Shown: positions 38,043 to 59,136 of the stretch, in pieces
Layout of the letters: every line of letters begins with the position of its first letter
Position numbering within the stretch: the stretch's first letter is position 1
Assembly: GCA_964389365.1 (NCBI GenBank)
Contig: CAYMDO010000001.1
Location: 5,938 to 69,937 of the forward strand
Origin: an uncultured Syntrophomonadaceae bacterium
Lineage (GTDB): Bacteria; Bacillota; Dethiobacteria; DTU022
Direction of reading: 5' to 3'
Length of the DNA: 64,000 bases
Notes under the pieces: generated by a model
Told to the model about the DNA's origin: nothing
Database searches by the model: none
Seen by the model: only the letters and a program-made list of their open reading frames with translations
Made by a program: the position numbers and the translations under genes

Positions 38043-39632
38043 TCAAACCCTGCAGCCAAATGATGTGCCAACAGCTATAGCAGAGCGCACCTGTTCGCTG
38101 TCCGGATTAACCCGCTTGGTACCGGAAACCGCTTCTTTCAGGGTTGCCGATCCAATGATGTTGCCGCTGAGACAGACCATCCTGTTAACTTTTTTTTCAT
38201 TGACCAGTTCAACTGCTTTAACCCCAAAGCGGGTAGCCAAAACCCGGTCATAAGAAGTGGGGCTGCCGCCTCTTTGCAGGTGACCCAGCACTGTAGCACG
38301 GCTTTCCATACCGGTCATTTTTTCGATCTCCCTGGATACAAAAAGACCGATTCCACCGAGCCGCTTTATCCCTCCCTGGATGCCATACAAAGGCTCTCCA
38401 CCCGCCAGATGAGCACCTTCTGCAATCACGATAATGCTAAATTTTTTACCACGCCTGCGGCGTTCATTTATTTTATCCACGATACAGCTAAATTCAAAAG
38501 GAAGTTCCGGTATTAGGATTATGTCACCCCCTCCGGCCATACCGGCCTGCAGGGCAATCCATCCTGCATGCCGGCCCATCACTTCAACCACCATGACCCG
38601 GTGATGCGATTCAGCCGTAGTGTGTATTTTATCAATAGCCTCGGTAGCTGTTGTTACGGCGGAATCAAAACCAAATGTTATGTCAGTGGCCGGGAGATCA
38701 TTGTCGATTGTCTTTGGGATACCGACAATCGGTACCCCCAATTCGCTGAAGCGGTGGGCTAACAGCAAACTGCCGTCACCACCGATTACAACCAGGCAGC
38801 TGATATCCCACCGTCCGAGATTTGCAAGGGCATCAGCTGAGCGATCCACACCCGTTTTGGTATAGTCAGATCCAGATGGTTTATAGTCAAAAGGATTGTC
38901 GCGGTTGGAAGTGCCCAGTATTGTCCCGCCGCGGTTGAGGATACCAGATACTGCAAGATCGTTAATAACCCTGGCATCATTTTCAACCAGCCCTTTAAAC
39001 CCATTATTAAAGCCTACCACTTCCAAACCATATTTATGAGCAGCCCCTTTAACCACAGCCCTGATCACAGCATTTAAACCCGGGCAATCACCACCGCCCG
39101 TCAGAATACCAATACGCCCATTTGCTTTATTATTCTTCAACGAAACCTGTTCCTCATTCCGGACAGGGCAGGCTGCTGCATCCGCATTATGATTATCCAG
39201 CGTCAGCGCTTCACGCGCCATGCGGTCAACCCGGCTATTATGCTCGTCATCGCCATGCCCCTTTACCTTGTGCCATTCAACTGTTAATTTATCCTTCAGC
39301 TCAAGCAGTTTTAACCATATATCGCGATTTTCAACAGTTTCTCCCTTGCTGTTACGCCAGCCGTTTATCTGCCAGCGGTCAAACCAGCGCTGCCGGAAAC
39401 AGTTGACCAGGTAAGCGCTGTCACTATATACCCTGACCGTGCTGCCGGCCGGTATCCTGGATAGGGCTTCGACTGCAGCTGTCAGTTCCATTCTTTGATT
39501 TGTTGTAGCTGCTGCTTGACCGGACAGCTCCTCTTCGATATCGCCAAGCATTATTAGTGCAGCCCACCCTCCGGGCCCCGGGTTACCGGAACAAGACCCA
39601 TCGGTGTAAACAATATATTCATTATTGTACAT
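38043..39632 (-). CDS. RNase HI domain fused in-frame to an ATP-type 6-phosphofructokinase
   Basis: Residues ~1-150 read YTDGSCSGNPGPGGWAALI...TNQRMELTAAVEAL...YSDSAYLVNCF...WHKVKGHGDDEHNSRVDRMAREA, carrying all four RNase HI catalytic residues D, E, D, D. A ~25 aa linker follows. Then comes a full PFK: RIGILTGGGDCPGLNAVIRAVV, GGDGSL, PKTIDNDL, MGRHAGWIAL. There is no stop codon between the domains. Start set at ATG 39632 (AGAGGAG 8 nt upstream). The ORF track's GTG at 39641 has no spacer. Confidence 0.75.
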   Translation of the reverse strand: MYNNEYIVYTDGSCSGNPGPGGWAALIMLGDIEEELSGQAAATTNQRMELTAAVEALSRIPAGSTVRVYSDSAYLVNCFRQRWFDRWQINGWRNSKGETVENRDIWLKLLELKDKLTVEWHKVKGHGDDEHNSRVDRMAREALTLDNHNADAAACPVRNEEQVSLKNNKANGRIGILTGGGDCPGLNAVIRAVVKGAAHKYGLEVVGFNNGFKGLVENDARVINDLAVSGILNRGGTILGTSNRDNPFDYKPSGSDYTKTGVDRSADALANLGRWDISCLVVIGGDGSLLLAHRFSELGVPIVGIPKTIDNDLPATDITFGFDSAVTTATEAIDKIHTTAESHHRVMVVEVMGRHAGWIALQAGMAGGGDIILIPELPFEFSCIVDKINERRRRGKKFSIIVIAEGAHLAGGEPLYGIQGGIKRLGGIGLFVSREIEKMTGMESRATVLGHLQRGGSPTSYDRVLATRFGVKAVELVNEKKVNRMVCLSGNIIGSATLKEAVSGTKRVNPDSEQVRSAIAVGTSFGCRV

Positions 39633-39653
39633 GCCTAACACTCCTCTTGCGCA

Positions 39654-52154: not shown

Positions 52155-52275
52155 TATAGCACTGTCAAGAGAAGTGAAAACGGTAAAGCGCGCCAACGCG
52201 CAGCTGGCTTACAGAATGGTCGGCTTAATGCAGAAAGCTGTTTCTCGTGCAGGCGTTAGCTTGACAGCATAAATC

Positions 52276-53552
52276 ATGACGGAAGAAGAAAAAGAAAAGA
52301 AGGAACTCACGTTGAAGCTAAATCTGGATGAAGAGCTTGAGCCGGGCGCAGATGAACGGAAAAACTTCGGCTACGCTGCAATTTTGAAAGTGTTCCACAA
52401 GTTGGAGCTTGATCATTTTTTAACAACAAGGCGAGGAATGAGGCTTATAAGTTTAATACGAAATCGATTATGCTTTTATTGGTGGTCTCCGGGCTTCTTG
52501 CCCCGGGCTCGAAGGGCAAGGCTTATCAGGATAGACACCGTTACTTTGAGCGCTTTAATTTTTCGGTTACCGATCTCTACCGCGCTCTTTCACATTTTGC
52601 GGCAATCGCTAAAGATTGCCAGCGTCATATCCACGAGCATGTTGTTCAAAAATACGGCAGTAATGTTAAGACTATCTATTACGGTGTGACTAACTTTTAC
52701 TTTGAGATTGATCAGGCTGTTGAACTGCGTAAATATGGCCGCTTAAAAGAACATCGCCATAATCCATTGGTACAGATGGGACTGGCCATGGATGCTGACG
52801 GGGTTCCTTTGTGTTATGAAATCTTTCCGGGAAATAAGCTTGACAAAGAGACCTTTCGCTCTGTAATTGGCGGGGTGCGTAAGAACTATGATACCGGTAG
52901 GATAGTGGTGGTTGCCGATATGGAGGTAATCACTGGTGATAATATCTATTATCTTACCGGTGGCAAGAACAGAAACGGCTTAGTAGCCAACCTTCAGCAG
53001 TACAGCCGAACCACTTCTTACGGGGAGGCTAAGTACGTTAAAAACTTAGTGTTTGACAAAAAGACCGGTGAAATCCTTAATGCAAAGGCAGAGCCCTGTT
53101 TTGATTATGAGAAGCTTGAACAAGAACAGCTCTATGACGGTTATTATGCGATTGTCACCAGTGAGCTTGAGATGTCGGAACAGCAGATTATTGATACTTA
53201 CCGCGGCCTGTGGGAGATCGAGGAAACTTTCAAGATCACCGAAGGTGCTCTTGAAGCGCGGCCTGTTTTCCTCTCCCGCGAGGAGCGGATTAGCGCGCAC
53301 TTTCTTTCCTGCTTCATAGCACTTGTGATCATCTGGCTTATTCAAAAGCTAACCTACAGGCGCTATTCTGCAGAAAAGATCGTTGAAGCTTTAAGCAAAA
53401 TTGCCTGCTCCAATGAGCAGGACAACCTTTATCTTTTTGATTATAGAAGTGAAATTTCTGATGCCATCGGCAAGGCCCTGGGGATCGATTTCACTCGCAG
53501 AAGGATGCAGTTAGGTGAGGTGAAAAATATTTTGGCAAAAGCTAAAAAATGA
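52276..53552 (+). mobile_element. IS1634-family transposase remnant (frameshifted, internally deleted, no recognisable terminal inverted repeats)
   Basis: Two overlapping frames (52276-52689 and 52413-53552) together give the IS1634 pattern ...NFGYAAILKVFHKLELDHF/FNNKARNEAYKF...YGVTNFYFE...KEHRHNPLVQMGLAMD...PGN...VVAD...YDGYYAIVTSE...YRGLWEIEETFKITEGALEARPVFLSREE. The frame break is at a T6 run (52415-52420). The segment between the second-D region and YDGYYA is ~100 aa short of intact relatives. Confidence 0.7.
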
Positions 53553-53652
53553 GTCTGTTCCCTACATATTTATGATAAATCATAAAAGCCGCAAACCCTT
53601 TATCCATAGGGGTTACGGCCTTGTTTTTGCTCAATTTTCCGTCAAAGTCAGG

Positions 53653-53681: not shown

Positions 53682-53812
53682 GAGGTGGTTTTGGAAGCAC
53701 TGCAAAACAAAAACAAATAAATCTTCACTTTCAAATAATGTTATAATTAGCCAGGCTTTTGTCAATACTGACAATTGAAAATTTCTTTATTCGAAGAAAG
53801 GGATGACCCCCT

Positions 53813-55600
53813 TTGACTAGGTTGATCCTGATTAAAGACTCAGTGCAACAGGTTGCTGAAGCAGTTACCGCTGCCCTGCAAATTGAAACTGAAATCATTG
53901 ACAACAGCTTAACGATTGTGGCCGGCACCGGCCGCTATAAGAAAAAAATAGGCCTCCAGGAAGAGGACGGGGATCTTGATTCGGGTTTCATCTATGGACA
54001 GCTTTTAAAAAGCGGGGAGCCCTACATCAATGATAATCCCAGTCCGGACCCTCCTTACGGGGCCAGGGAGAACGAACAGGCGGAAATATGCTGTCCGATC
54101 AATCTAGACGGTGATATTATTGGCCTTATTGCCTTGGTTGCCTTTAATCAGAAGCAAAAAAGAAAACTGCTTTCCAAAAGAGAAAACAATCTTTCCTTTT
54201 TATCACGCATGGCTTTTCTGATTGCTTCGAAAGTGGCCCAGGTTGAAATTGCCAACGAAATGAGCATGATAGTTGAAAATATTCGCGAAGGAATCCTGCT
54301 TACTAACAATTGCGGCCTAATCACCAGTTGTAATTCGGCAGCAGAAAGAATCCTATCCGTAAGCAAGGACGACCTGATCGGAACCTCAATTTCCGATTTA
54401 TGGGGTGATATCCCAATTGACGAAGTCCTGTTCAGGAAGATCCGCTATGAAGATCTTGAGACAATTTATATGGATACCGATAAACACCAGAGGCATCTCA
54501 TCATCAGTGCGGACCCGATCCTTATTGATGACCCGAAAGATAAAACCAACAGCAAAATCTGCACCGGGGCATTGGTAACTTTTAGAGGATTTCAGGAAAT
54601 GAAGAAAAAAATCTACAATATGACCGACAAGCAGCGTGCAGTAAGATTTACTGACATACTGGGCAATAGCCCTCAAATTCGTGAAAGCATTGAACGCTCA
54701 ATGATGATCGCTGAAACAAATTCGACAATTTTGATTACCGGCGAAAGCGGTACAGGTAAAGAACTTTTTGCCAGGGCCATTCATTTTAACAGTCAGCGCA
54801 AGGCAGAACCTTTTATCACAGTCAACTGCGGGGCTATTCCGGAAACTCTTTTGGAAACTGAATTATTTGGCTATGACAGCGGAGCTTTTACCGGTGCTCA
54901 AAAAGGGGGTAAGGCCGGTAAGTTTGAGATCGCCCACAAAGGGACTATCTTCTTAGATGAGATTGGCGATTTGCCTCTTCATCTCCAGGTTAAGTTGCTT
55001 CACGTTTTACAGCGCCGTGAAGTGGAAAGGGTTGGCAGCAACCAAGTTATATCTGTCAATGTCCGGGTTCTTGCCGCTACTAATCATAATCTAAGTCAAA
55101 TGGTAGAAGACGGTGAGTTTCGCGAAGATTTATACTACAGATTATGTGTCATCCCACTGCATATTCCCTCTTTACGAGAAAGAAAAGAAGATCTAGAAAC
55201 CCTGCTCTTTTATTTTCTTGATAAATTTAACCGCATCCTTGGTAAAAATATTAAAGGCTTTGAAGCAGACGCTCTTGCTGTATTTAAAGCCTATGACTGG
55301 CCGGGAAATGTCCGCGAGCTTGAAAATGCCATGGAGTATGCGGCAAGCTTTGAAAGAGGGGCAAGAATTAGTATATCCAGTATTCAACCACGTATTCAGC
55401 AAGTTAATAAGCCCGAAAGATCTGCATCTTTACCGCTCAGGAGCGGTTTAAATCATATGGAGAAGGAAGTTATCCTGCAACAGCTAAAACAAACAGGCTT
55501 TTCCACTGCGGGGAAGAGGACGGCGGCCATAAATCTTGGCATTAGCGAATCAACCCTCTACAGGCGCATCCGGAATCTTGGTATAAAACCGGATAGTTAA
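53813..55600 (+). CDS. Sigma-54-dependent transcriptional activator with N-terminal GAF/PAS sensory domains
   Basis: AAA+ sigma-54 interaction domain (GESGTGKE, GAFTGA, ...RELEN) and a C-terminal Fis-type HTH. The N-terminal ~300 aa have GAF- and PAS-like composition. TTG start with AAAGGGA RBS. Confidence 0.85.
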   Translation: MTRLILIKDSVQQVAEAVTAALQIETEIIDNSLTIVAGTGRYKKKIGLQEEDGDLDSGFIYGQLLKSGEPYINDNPSPDPPYGARENEQAEICCPINLDGDIIGLIALVAFNQKQKRKLLSKRENNLSFLSRMAFLIASKVAQVEIANEMSMIVENIREGILLTNNCGLITSCNSAAERILSVSKDDLIGTSISDLWGDIPIDEVLFRKIRYEDLETIYMDTDKHQRHLIISADPILIDDPKDKTNSKICTGALVTFRGFQEMKKKIYNMTDKQRAVRFTDILGNSPQIRESIERSMMIAETNSTILITGESGTGKELFARAIHFNSQRKAEPFITVNCGAIPETLLETELFGYDSGAFTGAQKGGKAGKFEIAHKGTIFLDEIGDLPLHLQVKLLHVLQRREVERVGSNQVISVNVRVLAATNHNLSQMVEDGEFREDLYYRLCVIPLHIPSLRERKEDLETLLFYFLDKFNRILGKNIKGFEADALAVFKAYDWPGNVRELENAMEYAASFERGARISISSIQPRIQQVNKPERSASLPLRSGLNHMEKEVILQQLKQTGFSTAGKRTAAINLGISESTLYRRIRNLGIKPDS

Positions 55601-55670
55601 TATCAGGTTTCTACAATAATTAAAATTAAACGGCCGTCCTGCAAAAAATAAGCAGTAACGACCGCATTTT

Positions 55671-57017
55671 TTATCCGACCAGGTTGCAAACGATCTCCCG
55701 AAAAACTGCCGTGTGCTGATCTATATCCTCATTGCTGGTTTGTGGCGAAATAAGTGCCATGTTATGAAATGGAGTCATCAGGATGCCCCTGTTCAAAGCT
55801 GCAAGGTGCATGTAGCGGTCCAACTCCGTATCAATCGCTGCTGCAGCCTCATGGCCATTACGCGCCGGCTCCCGCCTGAACCAGTATTCAGAACGACAAC
55901 CGAGATTTGTTACATTCCAGGGCAGATCAAATTCCCTGATCACATCATTAATACCCTCGACAAAGCGATCAGCCAGGGGAATCGTGATGTCATATGCTGC
56001 CTGGGTTAATACTCTTTCTAAAGTTACACGTATGGCAGCTACCGAGAGGGCATTTCCGGCCAAAGTTCCACCAATTCCGCCGGTATCACAATCCTCTATT
56101 TCAATTGAATTCTGGACCATATCGGCCACAGTTTCCGAAAAACCATAAACCGCCGCCGGAATTCCTGAAGCGATCGGCTTACCAATGGTCAGGATATCTG
56201 GTTCCAAATTTTCCAGGGCTGTATACCCGCCAGGGCCGGCACAGATAGTGTGGGTTTCATCGATGATCAGGAGTGTGCCGGTTTTCCTGGTCAGTTCACG
56301 TAGAGCCAGGTGATAACCCGGATCAGGATGGATAATGCCGATATTAGTCATCACCGGTTCAGCCAGCACGCAGGCAACATCTTCTTCAGCCAGCGCTTTC
56401 TCCAGGGCCGAAAGATCATTGAACTCAATTACTCTAGTGGTCATTGCAGGATCCACCGGTGGGCCAAGGTTACCCTGTCTTGCTTTTATCTTACTGTCAG
56501 GGTAAAGGGTTATAAAACTTTCGTCAACCGACCCGTGATAGCAGTAGTTGTAAACTAAAATTTTACCTCGGCCTGTGATATGCCTGGCCAGCCTAATTGA
56601 AAACCGGTTAGCATCGGTTGCAGTCAGGGCAAACTGCCAGTAGGGGAGTCCGAAGCGTCGCTGCAATTCAGCACCAACATAGATTGAGTCTTCCGTTGGC
56701 AGCATTAGGGTTGTGCCGTTCGCAATTCGCCTGGTGATTGCTTCAAGAACGGCATCCGGTGCATGACCGGTCATAGCGCCCGTATCGCCAAGGCAAAGAT
56801 CCAGGTAACGATGACCATCTACATCAGTAAAATGCGCACCCTTTGCCCAATCAACAAATATCGGGTAATCCCCGGCCCATTTAACCATCCAGTTCATCGG
56901 CACTCCGCCAAGAAGATTGACCTTGGCTTTTTCAAATAACTCCTGAGATCGGGGATGATTTTTAACAAACATTTTTCGTTCTCGGTTTAACAACTCGGGG
57001 AGTCTTTTCCCGTACAT
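55671..57017 (-). CDS. Class-III PLP aminotransferase, HemL (GSA aminomutase)-like subgroup
   Basis: PLP-lysine context ILTIGKPIASGIP resembles HemL's LTCLGKIIGGG. It has an unusual LLIIDETHT in place of the DEVMTGFR-type motif. The N-terminus aligns with HemL from ...SQELFEKAKVNLLGGV. An internal start at MFVKN (56972) is possible. Confidence 0.8.
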   Translation of the reverse strand: MYGKRLPELLNRERKMFVKNHPRSQELFEKAKVNLLGGVPMNWMVKWAGDYPIFVDWAKGAHFTDVDGHRYLDLCLGDTGAMTGHAPDAVLEAITRRIANGTTLMLPTEDSIYVGAELQRRFGLPYWQFALTATDANRFSIRLARHITGRGKILVYNYCYHGSVDESFITLYPDSKIKARQGNLGPPVDPAMTTRVIEFNDLSALEKALAEEDVACVLAEPVMTNIGIIHPDPGYHLALRELTRKTGTLLIIDETHTICAGPGGYTALENLEPDILTIGKPIASGIPAAVYGFSETVADMVQNSIEIEDCDTGGIGGTLAGNALSVAAIRVTLERVLTQAAYDITIPLADRFVEGINDVIREFDLPWNVTNLGCRSEYWFRREPARNGHEAAAAIDTELDRYMHLAALNRGILMTPFHNMALISPQTSNEDIDQHTAVFREIVCNLVG

Positions 57018-57067
57018 AATCTAAAGAATCACACCCTTCGAAAATATTTTTTCTGGCAGATAATAGC

Positions 57068-57083
57068 GCAATAGTTATGCCAA
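57068..57083 (-). promoter_or_regulatory. Sigma-54 (-24/-12) promoter for the aminotransferase gene
   Basis: The minus strand reads TGGCAT-AACTA-TTGCG, with GG and GC at the correct spacing (consensus TGGCACG-N4-TTGC). It lies ~40 nt upstream of the ATG at 57017. Confidence 0.5.
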
Positions 57084-57326
57084 CGATGAACAGGGCAATA
57101 TTTGCATTATCAGAAGAAAAAAGGCATTAAACCAGTGTTCTATGTCAACCCTGACAAATATCACTTCACAATTGACTGTTAGTCAGCCAATTCAAACCGC
57201 ATGAAAAGCAGGTTACACATAATAAAAAAAGCAGATGGTTTTACAGGACCTTTTATAACCGCCCTTACCGACAAAACCTGCAACTTTTTTAATTAATTCA
57301 GCGCATTAAGTCCTTAATAATTAGAA

Positions 57327-57342
57327 CGGCATGATAATTGCA
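57327..57342 (+). promoter_or_regulatory. Sigma-54 (-24/-12) promoter for the NhaC-family transporter gene
   Basis: cGGCATG-ataa-TTGCA has one mismatch in the GGCACG element and exact N4 spacing. It lies ~40 nt upstream of the ATG at 57382 (AAGGAGG RBS). Confidence 0.55.
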
Positions 57343-57381
57343 CAAAAAAATAACATTTAGATATTTAAAGGAGGTTTTCTA

Positions 57382-58869
57382 ATGCAGGAACCAAAGCTCC
57401 AGACAGAAGCCCCAGGCCGGGGAAACTACAGCACGCACTACAAAACTTACGCCATTTTAATTTTATTATTCCTGGTCGCCCTCTTTCTAATTCCTAAGGA
57501 GAGTGATTCTTACCAAGCACTGAGCCTTATACCCGCCGCTTTTCTCTTAATCTTTATCTTCTACACAAAACGCATCCTAGAGGCCCTGACAATCGGCGCT
57601 TTACTGGGTTATGTCATGAAATATGGCATAGGTTTTTTTGAGCCCTTTAGCTCTGAACTGCTAAATATTATGATGAATGAGAGCATCGCCTGGCTGATCA
57701 TTGTTTGCGGCCTGATGGGCAGCATTATTGCCCTGATTGAAAAAAGTGGAGGAGCCTATGCTTTCGGTGAATGGGTATCGAAGAGGGCAAAGACCAAAAA
57801 AAGTACTCTGCTTTGGACCTGGGTTCTCGGGATGGTTATCTTCATCGATGATTACCTCAACTGCCTGACCATCGGCTCATCGATGACCAGGGTGACCGAT
57901 AAACACAAGGTTTCACGTGAATACCTGGCCTATATCGTAGACTCGACAGCCGCCCCCACCTGTGTGTTGGTACCGGTTTCAACCTGGGCCATCTTTATCG
58001 GCATCCTGATGGTTGAGAATGGTCTGGGCTCCGGTGACTCGGGCATTGCCGAATTCATTAAAACTATTCCCTTTAACTTCTATGCCTGGTTCGCCGTGAT
58101 CATTGTTCCCCTGGTAATTCTTGGGGTTATCCCAGTTTTCGGCCCGATGAAGTCAGCTGAAAGAAGAGCCCAGGAAACCGGTGTTCTTGCCCCTCCGGGC
58201 TCGGAAAAAATTGATATGAAAGCCGGGGAAACATTCGAAGTTCCATTAAATCCAAATGTCTGGTTCTTCTTTCTGCCGATTATCATCCTGGTCGGCGCTA
58301 CCATCTACTTTGATCTCAGCATGCAAATGGGCGTCCTAGCCACCCTGGCGTTTATCTTTGTCTATTATTTAATCAGCAAGGTAATCACTCCGCTTGACTA
58401 TGCCGATATGGTAGTCCTGGGTGTAAAAAATATGTTATTTCCTCTTTCTCTGGTTGTTCTTGCTTACTGGTTTGCTGCTGCCAGCGAGGAAATCGGTTTT
58501 GTCAGTTACATGATCGAAATTGGTGAACGTTTTATGACCCCGGAGTTTTTACCGCTGGTTATATTCATCATTTTTGGCATCACTGAATTTATCATGGGCA
58601 TCAGCTGGGGTATGTATATTGTCGCTCTGCCGATCGTCATCCCGGTAGCTATCAGCCTGGGCGTTAACCCCTACCTGGCCGTCGGCGCAGTCTGCTCGGC
58701 CGGAATATGGGGTAGCCATATCTGCTTCTATTCCGATGCCACGATTCTAACCTCTGCCGCTACCGGCTGTGAAAACTTCAGGCACGCCATCACGCAGCTA
58801 CCTTACGGTTTTATCAGCTTTGTTTTGGCCGCTATAGCCTTTGTAATTGCCGGTCACCTGCTAATTTAA
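57382..58869 (+). CDS. NhaC-family transporter (Na+/H+ antiporter family, also containing amino-acid/organic acid exchangers)
   Basis: 495 aa polytopic protein with NhaC family segments (...DDYLNCLTIG...YIVDSTAAPTCVLVPVSTWA...). Confidence 0.8.
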   Translation: MQEPKLQTEAPGRGNYSTHYKTYAILILLFLVALFLIPKESDSYQALSLIPAAFLLIFIFYTKRILEALTIGALLGYVMKYGIGFFEPFSSELLNIMMNESIAWLIIVCGLMGSIIALIEKSGGAYAFGEWVSKRAKTKKSTLLWTWVLGMVIFIDDYLNCLTIGSSMTRVTDKHKVSREYLAYIVDSTAAPTCVLVPVSTWAIFIGILMVENGLGSGDSGIAEFIKTIPFNFYAWFAVIIVPLVILGVIPVFGPMKSAERRAQETGVLAPPGSEKIDMKAGETFEVPLNPNVWFFFLPIIILVGATIYFDLSMQMGVLATLAFIFVYYLISKVITPLDYADMVVLGVKNMLFPLSLVVLAYWFAAASEEIGFVSYMIEIGERFMTPEFLPLVIFIIFGITEFIMGISWGMYIVALPIVIPVAISLGVNPYLAVGAVCSAGIWGSHICFYSDATILTSAATGCENFRHAITQLPYGFISFVLAAIAFVIAGHLLI

Positions 58870-58901: not shown

Positions 58902-58940
58902 GAGCCGGGCTTTATTATATATACTATTCCAGCCCGGCTC
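58902..58940. terminator. Strong inverted repeat between convergent genes
   Basis: GAGCCGGGCT - 19 nt AT-rich loop - AGCCCGGCTC, a perfect 10 bp stem. Confidence 0.45.
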
Positions 58941-59136
58941 CCTTCCTTAACCGAAATAAAATGTTCATGGTTGCCGATGCTGCCAAGGTATAAGCCCGGG
59001 TGCCGGGCGGGTTATAGCGGTGGCTGCAGAAACAGCAAGATAGGTTACAGCGACCGGTGAGCGGTAAAACATTATGATCGCGTACTGCTTCAACCAATAA
59101 CCGCTGTAGTAAAGAACCATCTTTTAGTGCTGCCAA
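58924..59136 (-). pseudogene. Short ORF carrying a radical-SAM-like CxxxCxxC motif, probably a gene fragment
   Basis: ...LPLTGRCNLSCCFCSHRYNPPG... has the C-x3-C-x2-C spacing of radical-SAM enzymes. The ORF is only 70 aa and its stop lies inside the hairpin. Confidence 0.3.

Follow-up and report, generated by a model that had tools for sequence, protein, structure and literature searches.

A candidate sigma-54-dependent catabolic module with a HemL-like transaminase and an NhaC-family transporter in a Syntrophomonadaceae bacterium

Three adjacent genes in a 64,000-nucleotide stretch of DNA from an uncultured, anaerobic Syntrophomonadaceae bacterium of the Bacillota (contig CAYMDO010000001.1, positions 5,938 to 69,937; hereafter the window) encode a sigma-54 enhancer-binding protein (EBP), a pyridoxal phosphate (PLP)-dependent class-III transaminase that is HemL-like but not HemL, and a secondary transporter of the NhaC family. 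Our analysis favors a model in which they form a substrate-inducible, sigma-54-dependent catabolic regulon for compounds with a terminal amine, that is, omega-amino acids or diamines; we put the probability of this reading at about 0.62. An original prediction, made from the letters of the window, had described a sigma-54 module for the uptake and transamination of an amino compound, and the domains of the three proteins, the conservation of the promoters, a predicted operator and the gene neighborhoods in relatives all speak for it.

Results

A conserved three-gene locus with a sigma-54 activator

The gene order is EBP (53813-55600, plus strand), aminotransferase (55671-57017, minus strand) and transporter (57382-58869, plus strand), and open reading frame (ORF) calls together with Pfam and NCBIfam matches confirm the EBP, class-III aminotransferase and NhaC-family transporter genes that had been proposed. 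We fetched 170 loci, designated here by L-numbers, and the layout is common to five relatives: L001, L005, L085, L088 and, with a different transporter, L087. Purifying selection is strong on all three genes, with ratios of nonsynonymous to synonymous divergence (dN/dS) of 0.04-0.08; in the EBP and aminotransferase genes, synonymous divergence between the window and L001 or L088 is saturated (dS 1.5-1.8).

The EBP comprises 595 aa and starts at a TTG codon that is aligned to an ATG in L001. It has a GAF-like region (residues 38-138), a PAS domain (149-240), an AAA+ domain (282-449) followed by a lid, and a helix-turn-helix domain, HTH_8 (549-587). The Pfam matches are Sigma54_activat (PF00158) at 238 bits, AAA_lid_14, HTH_8 at 23.0 bits (cut-off 22) and PAS at 31.2 bits (cut-off 22.6), while GAF_2 reaches 26.9 bits, slightly below its gathering score of 28.6. 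Thus, of the GAF/PAS sensor originally proposed, the PAS part stands, and the GAF part is not a firm call; the N-terminus is best called GAF-like. The translation contains an intact GAFTGA motif, Walker A (GESGTGKE) and Walker B (FLDEIGD), so that the protein combines the hallmarks of a sigma-54 activator, namely an AAA+ domain with GAFTGA and Walker motifs, a Fis-type helix-turn-helix at the C-terminus and an N-terminal sensor. Relative to its orthologues, the EBP gene has dN/dS of 0.07-0.08. The best NCBIfam match is PrdR (NF041552), an identity that we rejected at 422 bits against a cut-off of 795.

Two predicted, divergent sigma-54 promoters

The 364-bp gap between the aminotransferase and transporter genes holds two -24/-12 promoters of the sigma-54 type: TTGGCATAACTATTGCG for the aminotransferase (57083-57067, minus strand), with a transcription start site (TSS) predicted at ~57057, and ACGGCATGATAATTGCA for the transporter (57326-57342, plus strand), with a TSS predicted at ~57352. 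These are the two promoter strings of the original prediction; each is found in the gap, points at its own gene and is conserved. From GC element to start codon the distances are 52 and 42 nt, and the transporter gene has a ribosome-binding site, AAGGAGG, at 57368-57374. Both promoters match TTGGCATNNNNNTTGCT, the sigma-54 promoter consensus of Clostridiales (PMC6615313). In the gap, a consensus scan found no promoter of the sigma-70 type.

The core GGCA-N6-TTGC has three matches in the 64 kb, where 3.8 are expected, and the count by itself is therefore not significant. Two of the three matches fall in the 364-bp gap, one on each strand and each facing its gene, an arrangement with a probability of ~1e-4 by chance according to our own arithmetic. 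The third, GGCAGCATTATTGC at 57718-57731 (plus strand), lies within the coding region of the transporter gene and is probably a chance match. In an alignment of the spacer from six loci (the window, L001, L005, L085, L087 and L088), invariant columns number 14 of 17 and 15 of 18 in the promoters, compared with 39 of 259 (15%) in the rest of the spacer. The transporter promoter is kept even in L087, where it precedes TRAP dctPQM genes, and -24/-12 elements recur before the target genes of orthologous EBPs with 44-61% identity. From the placement and the conservation of the two promoters, with the conservation being decisive, we judge them to be genuine features and not chance matches, and the module is very probably sigma-54 dependent. 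The spacer contains a further box, CCTTTTAT (57247-57254), at about -100 from the transporter TSS. Three of its eight columns are invariant in the six loci and no palindrome is obvious in it; DNA bending or the binding of a second factor are possible roles.

A predicted operator and a likely promoter of the EBP gene

The exact palindrome TGTCA-N4-TGACA is present in the 64 kb in two copies only, at 53760 and 57143, and we propose it as the operator of the EBP. The copy in the gap, TGTCAACCCTGACA (57143-57156), would serve as upstream activator site 1; its center lies at about -92 relative to the TSS of the aminotransferase gene and about -202 relative to that of the transporter gene, and the palindrome is found at the orthologous place in L001, L005, L085, L087 and L088. 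A probable degenerate site 2, CTTCACAATTGACT (57164-57177), follows at 21 bp start to start. It coincides with a conserved TTCA-N-TGA block in the six-locus alignment, and the 21-bp spacing is that of two perfect palindromes in L164.

The second copy, TGTCAATACTGACA (53760-53773), is located ~50 bp 5' of the EBP start codon and just 3' of an extended -10 element, TGTTATAAT (53739-53747, plus strand), which is likely the sigma-A promoter of the EBP gene. A -10 of the form TGnTATAcT/TATAAT occurs at the same place in L001, L005, L085, L086 and L088, and the palindrome on the EBP side is found at -49 to -53 in all six close loci. The location of the operator just 3' of this -10 suggests that the EBP represses its own sigma-A promoter and so regulates itself through the palindrome at 53760. 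Ten of the 170 fetched loci contain TGTCA-N4-TGACA, always in regulatory DNA beside orthologous EBP, aminotransferase or NhaC genes; the palindrome is doubled between the divergent promoters of L164 and lies 5' of the NhaC gene in L167-L169.

The aminotransferase belongs to PRK07046 and is not HemL

The aminotransferase (448 aa; dN/dS 0.04-0.05) matches Aminotran_3 in Pfam, and the NCBIfam model NF005453/PRK07046, named "transaminase", covers residues 4-447 with 652 bits against a cut-off of 425. The models for HemL (glutamate-1-semialdehyde 2,1-aminomutase, GSAM) remain far below their cut-offs (TIGR00713, 227 versus 527 bits; PRK00062, 220 versus 398; PRK12389, 177 versus 637). Among solved structures the top match is 5ykr, a "probable aminotransferase" (E 2e-133, full length), and bona fide GSAM structures come next at E ~1e-47 to 1e-40. 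The description of the enzyme as a HemL-like class-III aminotransferase was thus apt, and the clade assignment that had been called for within the GSA-AM-like enzymes leads to PRK07046. Because the enzyme is a PRK07046 protein and not HemL, the objection that the original prediction had raised against itself, a specific HemL assignment of what would be the only hemL copy, falls away.

GGVNSPVRAF is the substrate-binding segment of GSAM and DEVMTGFR a conserved GSAM motif. In an alignment with GSAM structures 3bs8 and 2e7u, Bacillus subtilis GSAM included, GGVNSPVRAF is aligned with GGVPMNWM-VKW of the window enzyme and FDEVMTGFR with IDETHTICA. The PLP lysine is kept (GKPIASG) and aligns with the site of the Lys-to-Ala change that separates 5ykt from 5ykr, and the aspartate of DETHT is kept as well. 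The LLIIDETHT motif had been regarded as atypical; it is instead the family norm, DETHT being present in at least 103 of the 120 closest homologues. The family is large: there are at least 8,000 PRK07046-type homologues, the threshold of E 1e-30 having been passed by every one of the 8,000 candidates scored, and 65-70% identity is seen between members from Bacillota, Chloroflexota, Acidobacteriota and Melainabacteria.

Models for enzymes acting on likely substrates are not matched either: the GabT model TIGR00700 gives 81 bits (cut-off 507), the ornithine aminotransferase model TIGR01885 gives 88 (cut-off 378), and putrescine aminotransferase models score far below their cut-offs. The window enzyme shares 22-28% identity with PatA and GabT from L164 and L165. 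We found no published function for the PRK07046 family or 5ykr in the literature searched, and a literature search on HemL paralogues returned nothing specific. Rv3329 was considered as a lead to the family and dropped; it is discussed as taurine-pyruvate-transaminase-like, with no tie to PRK07046.

The transporter is an NhaC-family protein

The transporter (495 aa) matches Na_H_antiporter (PF03553) with 100.9 bits against a cut-off of 23, in line with the NhaC-type assignment of the original prediction, and is probably the importer of the substrate. We rejected the identity of a bona fide NhaC Na+/H+ antiporter, for which the model TIGR00931 gives 43 bits against 370. Orthologues of the transporter (60-76% identity) are encoded beside aminotransferases of the PatA and GabT types and beside aldehyde ferredoxin oxidoreductase (AFOR). 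In comparisons with L001 and L088, the dS of the transporter gene is 0.65-0.70, less than half of that of the adjacent EBP and aminotransferase genes; the transporter slot, which in L087 is occupied by TRAP dctPQM, may have been exchanged by recombination.

Gene neighborhoods in relatives

Relatives of the module are combined with genes for the breakdown of terminal amines (identities below are to the window proteins, where measured). In L164 (EBP 61%, PRK07046 aminotransferase 78%, NhaC 75%), the divergent sigma-54 promoters and the operator are arranged as in the window, and the transporter gene is followed in its operon by genes for a putrescine aminotransferase (PRK11522, 620 bits, cut-off 612), a ferredoxin and AFOR; a small ThiS-like protein is also encoded. 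L165 and L166 (EBP 44.5%, NhaC 70%) contain GabT (TIGR00700, 538 bits, cut-off 507), PatA, a ferredoxin and AFOR, with a sigma-54 promoter of its own before each of three operons, and L172 (EBP 44%, NhaC 69%) has two PatA, GabT, an aldehyde dehydrogenase (ALDH) and two AFOR. In Desulfuromonas (L173; EBP 37%, NhaC 62%), PatA-like and GabT-like genes are accompanied by a ferredoxin, with no AFOR match and no ALDH at this locus, and in a member of the Desulfobacterota (L170) a PRK07046-like protein (46%) and NhaC (60%) are found with two PatA-type enzymes and AFOR, and with TetR/AsnC regulators and no EBP.

Other transporters are found in the remaining clusters. L087, a close relative (EBP 81%, PRK07046 enzyme 90%), has TRAP dctPQM instead of NhaC behind the same promoter. 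L089 and L090 (EBP 49%, PRK07046 enzyme 62%) have a perfect TTGGCAT-N5-TTGCT before the aminotransferase gene; L089 has a second one before an APC amino-acid permease whose similarity to gamma-aminobutyrate (GABA) permeases, at 197 bits, is below the cut-off. In L091, the EBP (47%) is found with a putrescine aminotransferase, an APC permease and ALDH, and both target operons lie behind sigma-54 promoters.

Neighbors of the aminotransferase were counted in the 84 genome loci retrieved with it. AFOR lies within 6 kb of the PRK07046 gene in 24 of the 84, and a GabT-like gene is adjacent to it in 20, mostly in Anaerolineae; some of the clusters with a GabT-like gene also contain a PotD-like binding protein, a saccharopine-dehydrogenase-like gene and an SSF symporter. 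The theme that these relatives share would be the conversion of a terminal amine to an aldehyde by loss of the amino group, followed by oxidation of the aldehyde to an acid.

Two other settings were seen. In Acidobacteriota (L011-L023, L039, L060, L077 and others), the aminotransferase gene is part of a fixed string of hslV, hslU, aminotransferase, a lipoprotein with an fn3 domain and an FAA-hydrolase-family protein, with no catabolic partners. The family may thus have another role in this phylum, perhaps a housekeeping one; the hslVU neighborhood in itself is uninformative on function. In L168 (9602-16573) and L171 (9528-16335), NhaC (68-72%) and EBP (48%) orthologues are followed by a different gene set, which could be an uncharacterized pathway under the same type of control.

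Other features of the window

A terminator-like hairpin with a T-run, detected by consensus scan only, lies just 3' of the aminotransferase stop codon (55652-55665, minus strand). A GC-rich hairpin (58902-58940; -19.6 kcal/mol, z = -4.45), which has no clear T-tract, lies between the convergent transporter and leuS genes and is a possible bidirectional terminator. The other genes of the window are housekeeping genes, among them leuS, comEA, comEC, lepA, nadABC, holA, ahcY and genes for a nucleoside ABC transporter and rubrerythrin.

A remnant of an IS1634-family transposase (~52170-53640; NF033559, 259 bits) separates an Asp23-family gene from the EBP promoter. Its ORFs, 52276-52689 and 52470-53552, are in overlapping frames, suggesting a frameshift. 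No such remnant is found at the matching site in L001, L005, L086 or L088, and the -10 and operator of the EBP gene are undamaged in the window. A gene for a radical-SAM/PDZ-domain protein (~446 aa) lies between transporter and leuS in L001 and L088 (12141-13458 in L088) and directly 5' of the aminotransferase gene in L002 and L003; it is lacking in the window, where ~35 bp are left at 58950-58984. At the corresponding chromosomal site of L002 and L003, whose aminotransferases are 83% identical to that of the window, the order is leuS, radical-SAM gene, aminotransferase, Asp23 and comEA, with neither EBP nor transporter gene, suggesting that regulator and transporter come and go together beside an enzyme gene that stays in place. 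Elsewhere in the window, a 532-aa ORF (38043-39641, minus strand) joins an RNase H domain (residues 7-146) to a complete phosphofructokinase domain (176-480), which is an unusual fusion unless it reflects a lost stop codon or an assembly artefact.

Discussion

We propose the following model for the module. The EBP gene would be read from its own sigma-A-type extended -10, with the EBP probably damping this promoter through the palindrome just 3' of it. Dimers of the EBP would occupy a single TGTCA-N4-TGACA site, or two, in the spacer of the divergent genes, and binding of an inducer, either the substrate or its aldehyde product, to the GAF-like/PAS sensor would relieve the inhibition of the AAA+ domain. 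With ATP, a hexamer of the EBP could then open the sigma-54 holoenzyme complexes of both -24/-12 promoters, switching on the NhaC-family importer and the PRK07046 transaminase. The transaminase would transfer the terminal (omega) amino group of the imported compound to a 2-oxo acid, in the direction that yields an aldehyde and glutamate or alanine. The control logic is textbook sigma-54 and there is nothing new in it; the assignment of the enzyme as an omega-amine transaminase is moderately supported.

TRAP systems usually need a carboxylate or similar anionic group on the substrate. The replacement of NhaC by TRAP in L087 favors a substrate bearing a carboxylate, and omega-amino acids (GABA, 5-aminovalerate, beta-alanine) are the most likely class. 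The associations with PatA and PotD keep diamines and basic amino acids in play, the related alternatives being a diamine or a basic amino acid that reacts at its side-chain amine. The window itself, with an importer and a single transaminase, and with no PatA, GabT or AFOR homologue in its 64 kb, would represent a minimal version of the module.

Several observations weigh against a terminal-amine regulon. The 64 kb of the window contain no aldehyde-oxidizing enzyme to take up the product, and no PatA-type gene. In 59 of the 84 loci, mostly from Acidobacteriota, none of these catabolic partners lies near the aminotransferase gene, and the gene set that follows NhaC and the EBP in L168 and L171 consists of a short-chain dehydrogenase, a GDC-P-like protein, a 518-aa protein with no Pfam match and an NAD-kinase-like protein. 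The co-occurrence of PRK07046 and GabT-like enzymes in the 20 loci found mostly in Anaerolineae counts against a simple replacement of GabT. As to the regulation, the only strong operator is separated from the transporter promoter by ~200 bp, a long though not unprecedented distance for an activator site, and rpoN is not among the 37 ORFs of the 64-kb window that were scanned against Pfam (nine of them also against NCBIfam).

Could the locus be explained without a dedicated sigma-54 regulon or without a new transaminase? If the -24/-12 matches were due to chance, a housekeeping sigma factor would transcribe the genes, and the abundance of GGCA-N6-TTGC in the window (3 versus 3.8 expected) agrees with this. 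We nevertheless consider chance very improbable and reject it: the sites are oriented and correctly spaced from the start codons, they are conserved in six loci despite saturated synonymous divergence, and they recur before the targets of EBP orthologues of 44-61% identity, while the gap offers no sigma-70-like site and the adjacent EBP has an intact GAFTGA. Even less probable is that the enzyme is HemL, in a locus for tetrapyrrole synthesis. After 5ykr, the next-best structural matches are indeed bona fide GSAM proteins, and JGI labels many homologues GSAM. The profile scores (TIGR00713 less than half of its cut-off, PRK07046 well above) and the replacement of the GGVNSPVRAF and FDEVMTGFR segments led us to reject this identity; moreover, a transporter and an EBP adjoin the gene, no hem genes are found among the scanned ORFs of the 64 kb, and Pseudomonas aeruginosa has a true hemL in addition to two paralogues of this kind (PMC7857532).

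The two other alternatives concern the substrate and lie closer to the terminal-amine regulon that we favor. One, which we regard as possible but doubtful, is that the module is specifically the GABA (or 5-aminovalerate) branch, with the PRK07046 enzyme as a non-orthologous replacement of GabT and NhaC importing the omega-amino acid. Clusters with PatA, NhaC and AFOR contain either GabT (L165, L166 and L172, as does L173, which has no AFOR match) or a PRK07046-type enzyme (L164, L170), never both, although this mutual exclusion is based on about six clusters only. The TRAP transporter of L087 and the permease of L089, with its sub-threshold resemblance to GABA permeases, would fit such a substrate, as would the induction of a characterized analogue, GabR-gabT, by GABA or succinate semialdehyde (PMC4279683). 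However, a GabT-like gene stands directly beside the PRK07046 gene in 20 loci, so that the two are not interchangeable in general, which argues for a distinct step, and the window enzyme is far from the GABA-transaminase model TIGR00700. The other alternative, which appears unlikely, is that the imported compound is a basic amino acid or one of the diamines putrescine and cadaverine, and that the PRK07046 enzyme itself takes off its first terminal amino group, perhaps mainly as a source of nitrogen. It draws on NhaC orthologues co-transcribed with PatA-type putrescine aminotransferases (L164, L165), on the putrescine aminotransferase, ALDH and permease controlled by the EBP of L091, on the PotD-like and saccharopine-dehydrogenase-like genes of the Anaerolineae clusters and on the NhaC-family members of sigma-54 regulons predicted to be arginine or ornithine carriers (PMC6615313). 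Against it, the TRAP system of L087 would call for an anionic substrate, PRK07046 enzymes co-occur with PatA-type enzymes, suggesting a different step, and the putrescine- and ornithine-aminotransferase models are far from matching the window enzyme.

The main value of the terminal-amine regulon proposed here is as a lead for a misannotated enzyme family, together with a compact system in which to test it. NCBI names this large family only "transaminase" and JGI labels it HemL, a label that can make thousands of genomes and metagenome bins seem, wrongly, to have additional heme-pathway genes; the module offers a functional lead. The defined regulator, the operator TGTCA-N4-TGACA and the two promoters give a handle for finding the inducer and then the substrate. 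In addition, the recurrent link to AFOR hints at an anaerobic breakdown of amines that uses ferredoxin instead of NAD. We speculate, tentatively, that PRK07046 proteins are an unrecognized class of omega-transaminases that act with putrescine- and GABA-type transaminases and tungsten-type AFOR in a ferredoxin-linked anaerobic breakdown of polyamines or omega-amino acids; if so, the sigma-54 module would be a clean genetic handle for identifying the substrate. We found no paper describing a ferredoxin-linked route of amine degradation in the literature searched, and no paper with both putrescine aminotransferase and aldehyde ferredoxin oxidoreductase.

Among the closest known systems are, for the enzyme, the proteins of PDB entries 5ykr/5ykt and PA4088/PA5523 of P. 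aeruginosa, which are of the PRK07046 type and share the DETHT and GK motifs of the window enzyme. P. aeruginosa has PA4088 and PA5523, paralogues of undetermined role, besides its true hemL (PMC7857532), and spermine-NONOate induces PA5523 together with davDT and a glutamine-synthetase-like gene.

For the module as a whole, the original prediction had drawn a parallel to RocR with rocD and rocE. In B. subtilis, RocR is a sigma-54 EBP with a PAS sensor that controls arginine and ornithine catabolism (rocABC/rocDEF), and the shared scheme of a PAS-bearing sigma-54 EBP over a class-III aminotransferase and a permease for amino compounds holds. However, the enzyme here is not an ornithine aminotransferase (TIGR01885), the permease is of the NhaC type whereas that of the Roc system is of the APC type, and the genes diverge from a shared activator site whereas the Roc genes form one operon. 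The sigma-54 regulons of Clostridiales, such as those of PrdR and OrdR, resemble the module in the promoter consensus and in EBPs with GAF/PAS sensors; most of these EBPs control one or two adjacent operons for amino-acid catabolism, and an nhaC gene is part of the predicted OrdR ornithine regulon (PMC6615313). They differ in that the operator TGTCA-N4-TGACA is one that we infer here and in that the main text of the study never uses the word "aminotransferase" (PMC6615313). More broadly, sigma-54 control of GABA and ornithine aminotransferases is a recognized trend in Bacillota (PMC12316311).

By analogy, the closest characterized counterpart is GabR-gabT of Bacillus thuringiensis rather than RocR-rocDEF. 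GabR is a PAS-AAA+-HTH EBP acting from an inverted-repeat site on a sigma-54 promoter, TGGCATACATTTGCA, before gabT, which encodes a class-III omega-aminotransferase; its PAS domain inhibits the activator until GABA or succinate semialdehyde arrives (PMC4279683). In both cases the EBP gene adjoins its target, a promoter of the TGGCAT...TTGCA type precedes a class-III aminotransferase gene and an inverted-repeat site lies upstream. The module of the window departs from GabR-gabT in that its enzyme belongs to PRK07046 and not to GabT (TIGR00700), in that the locus has no succinate-semialdehyde dehydrogenase and in the extra GAF-like domain at the N-terminus of the EBP. It also has a copy of the predicted operator in the EBP gene's own promoter, whereas GabR does not bind its own (PMC4279683), and a second, divergent sigma-54 promoter that serves an NhaC-family transporter.

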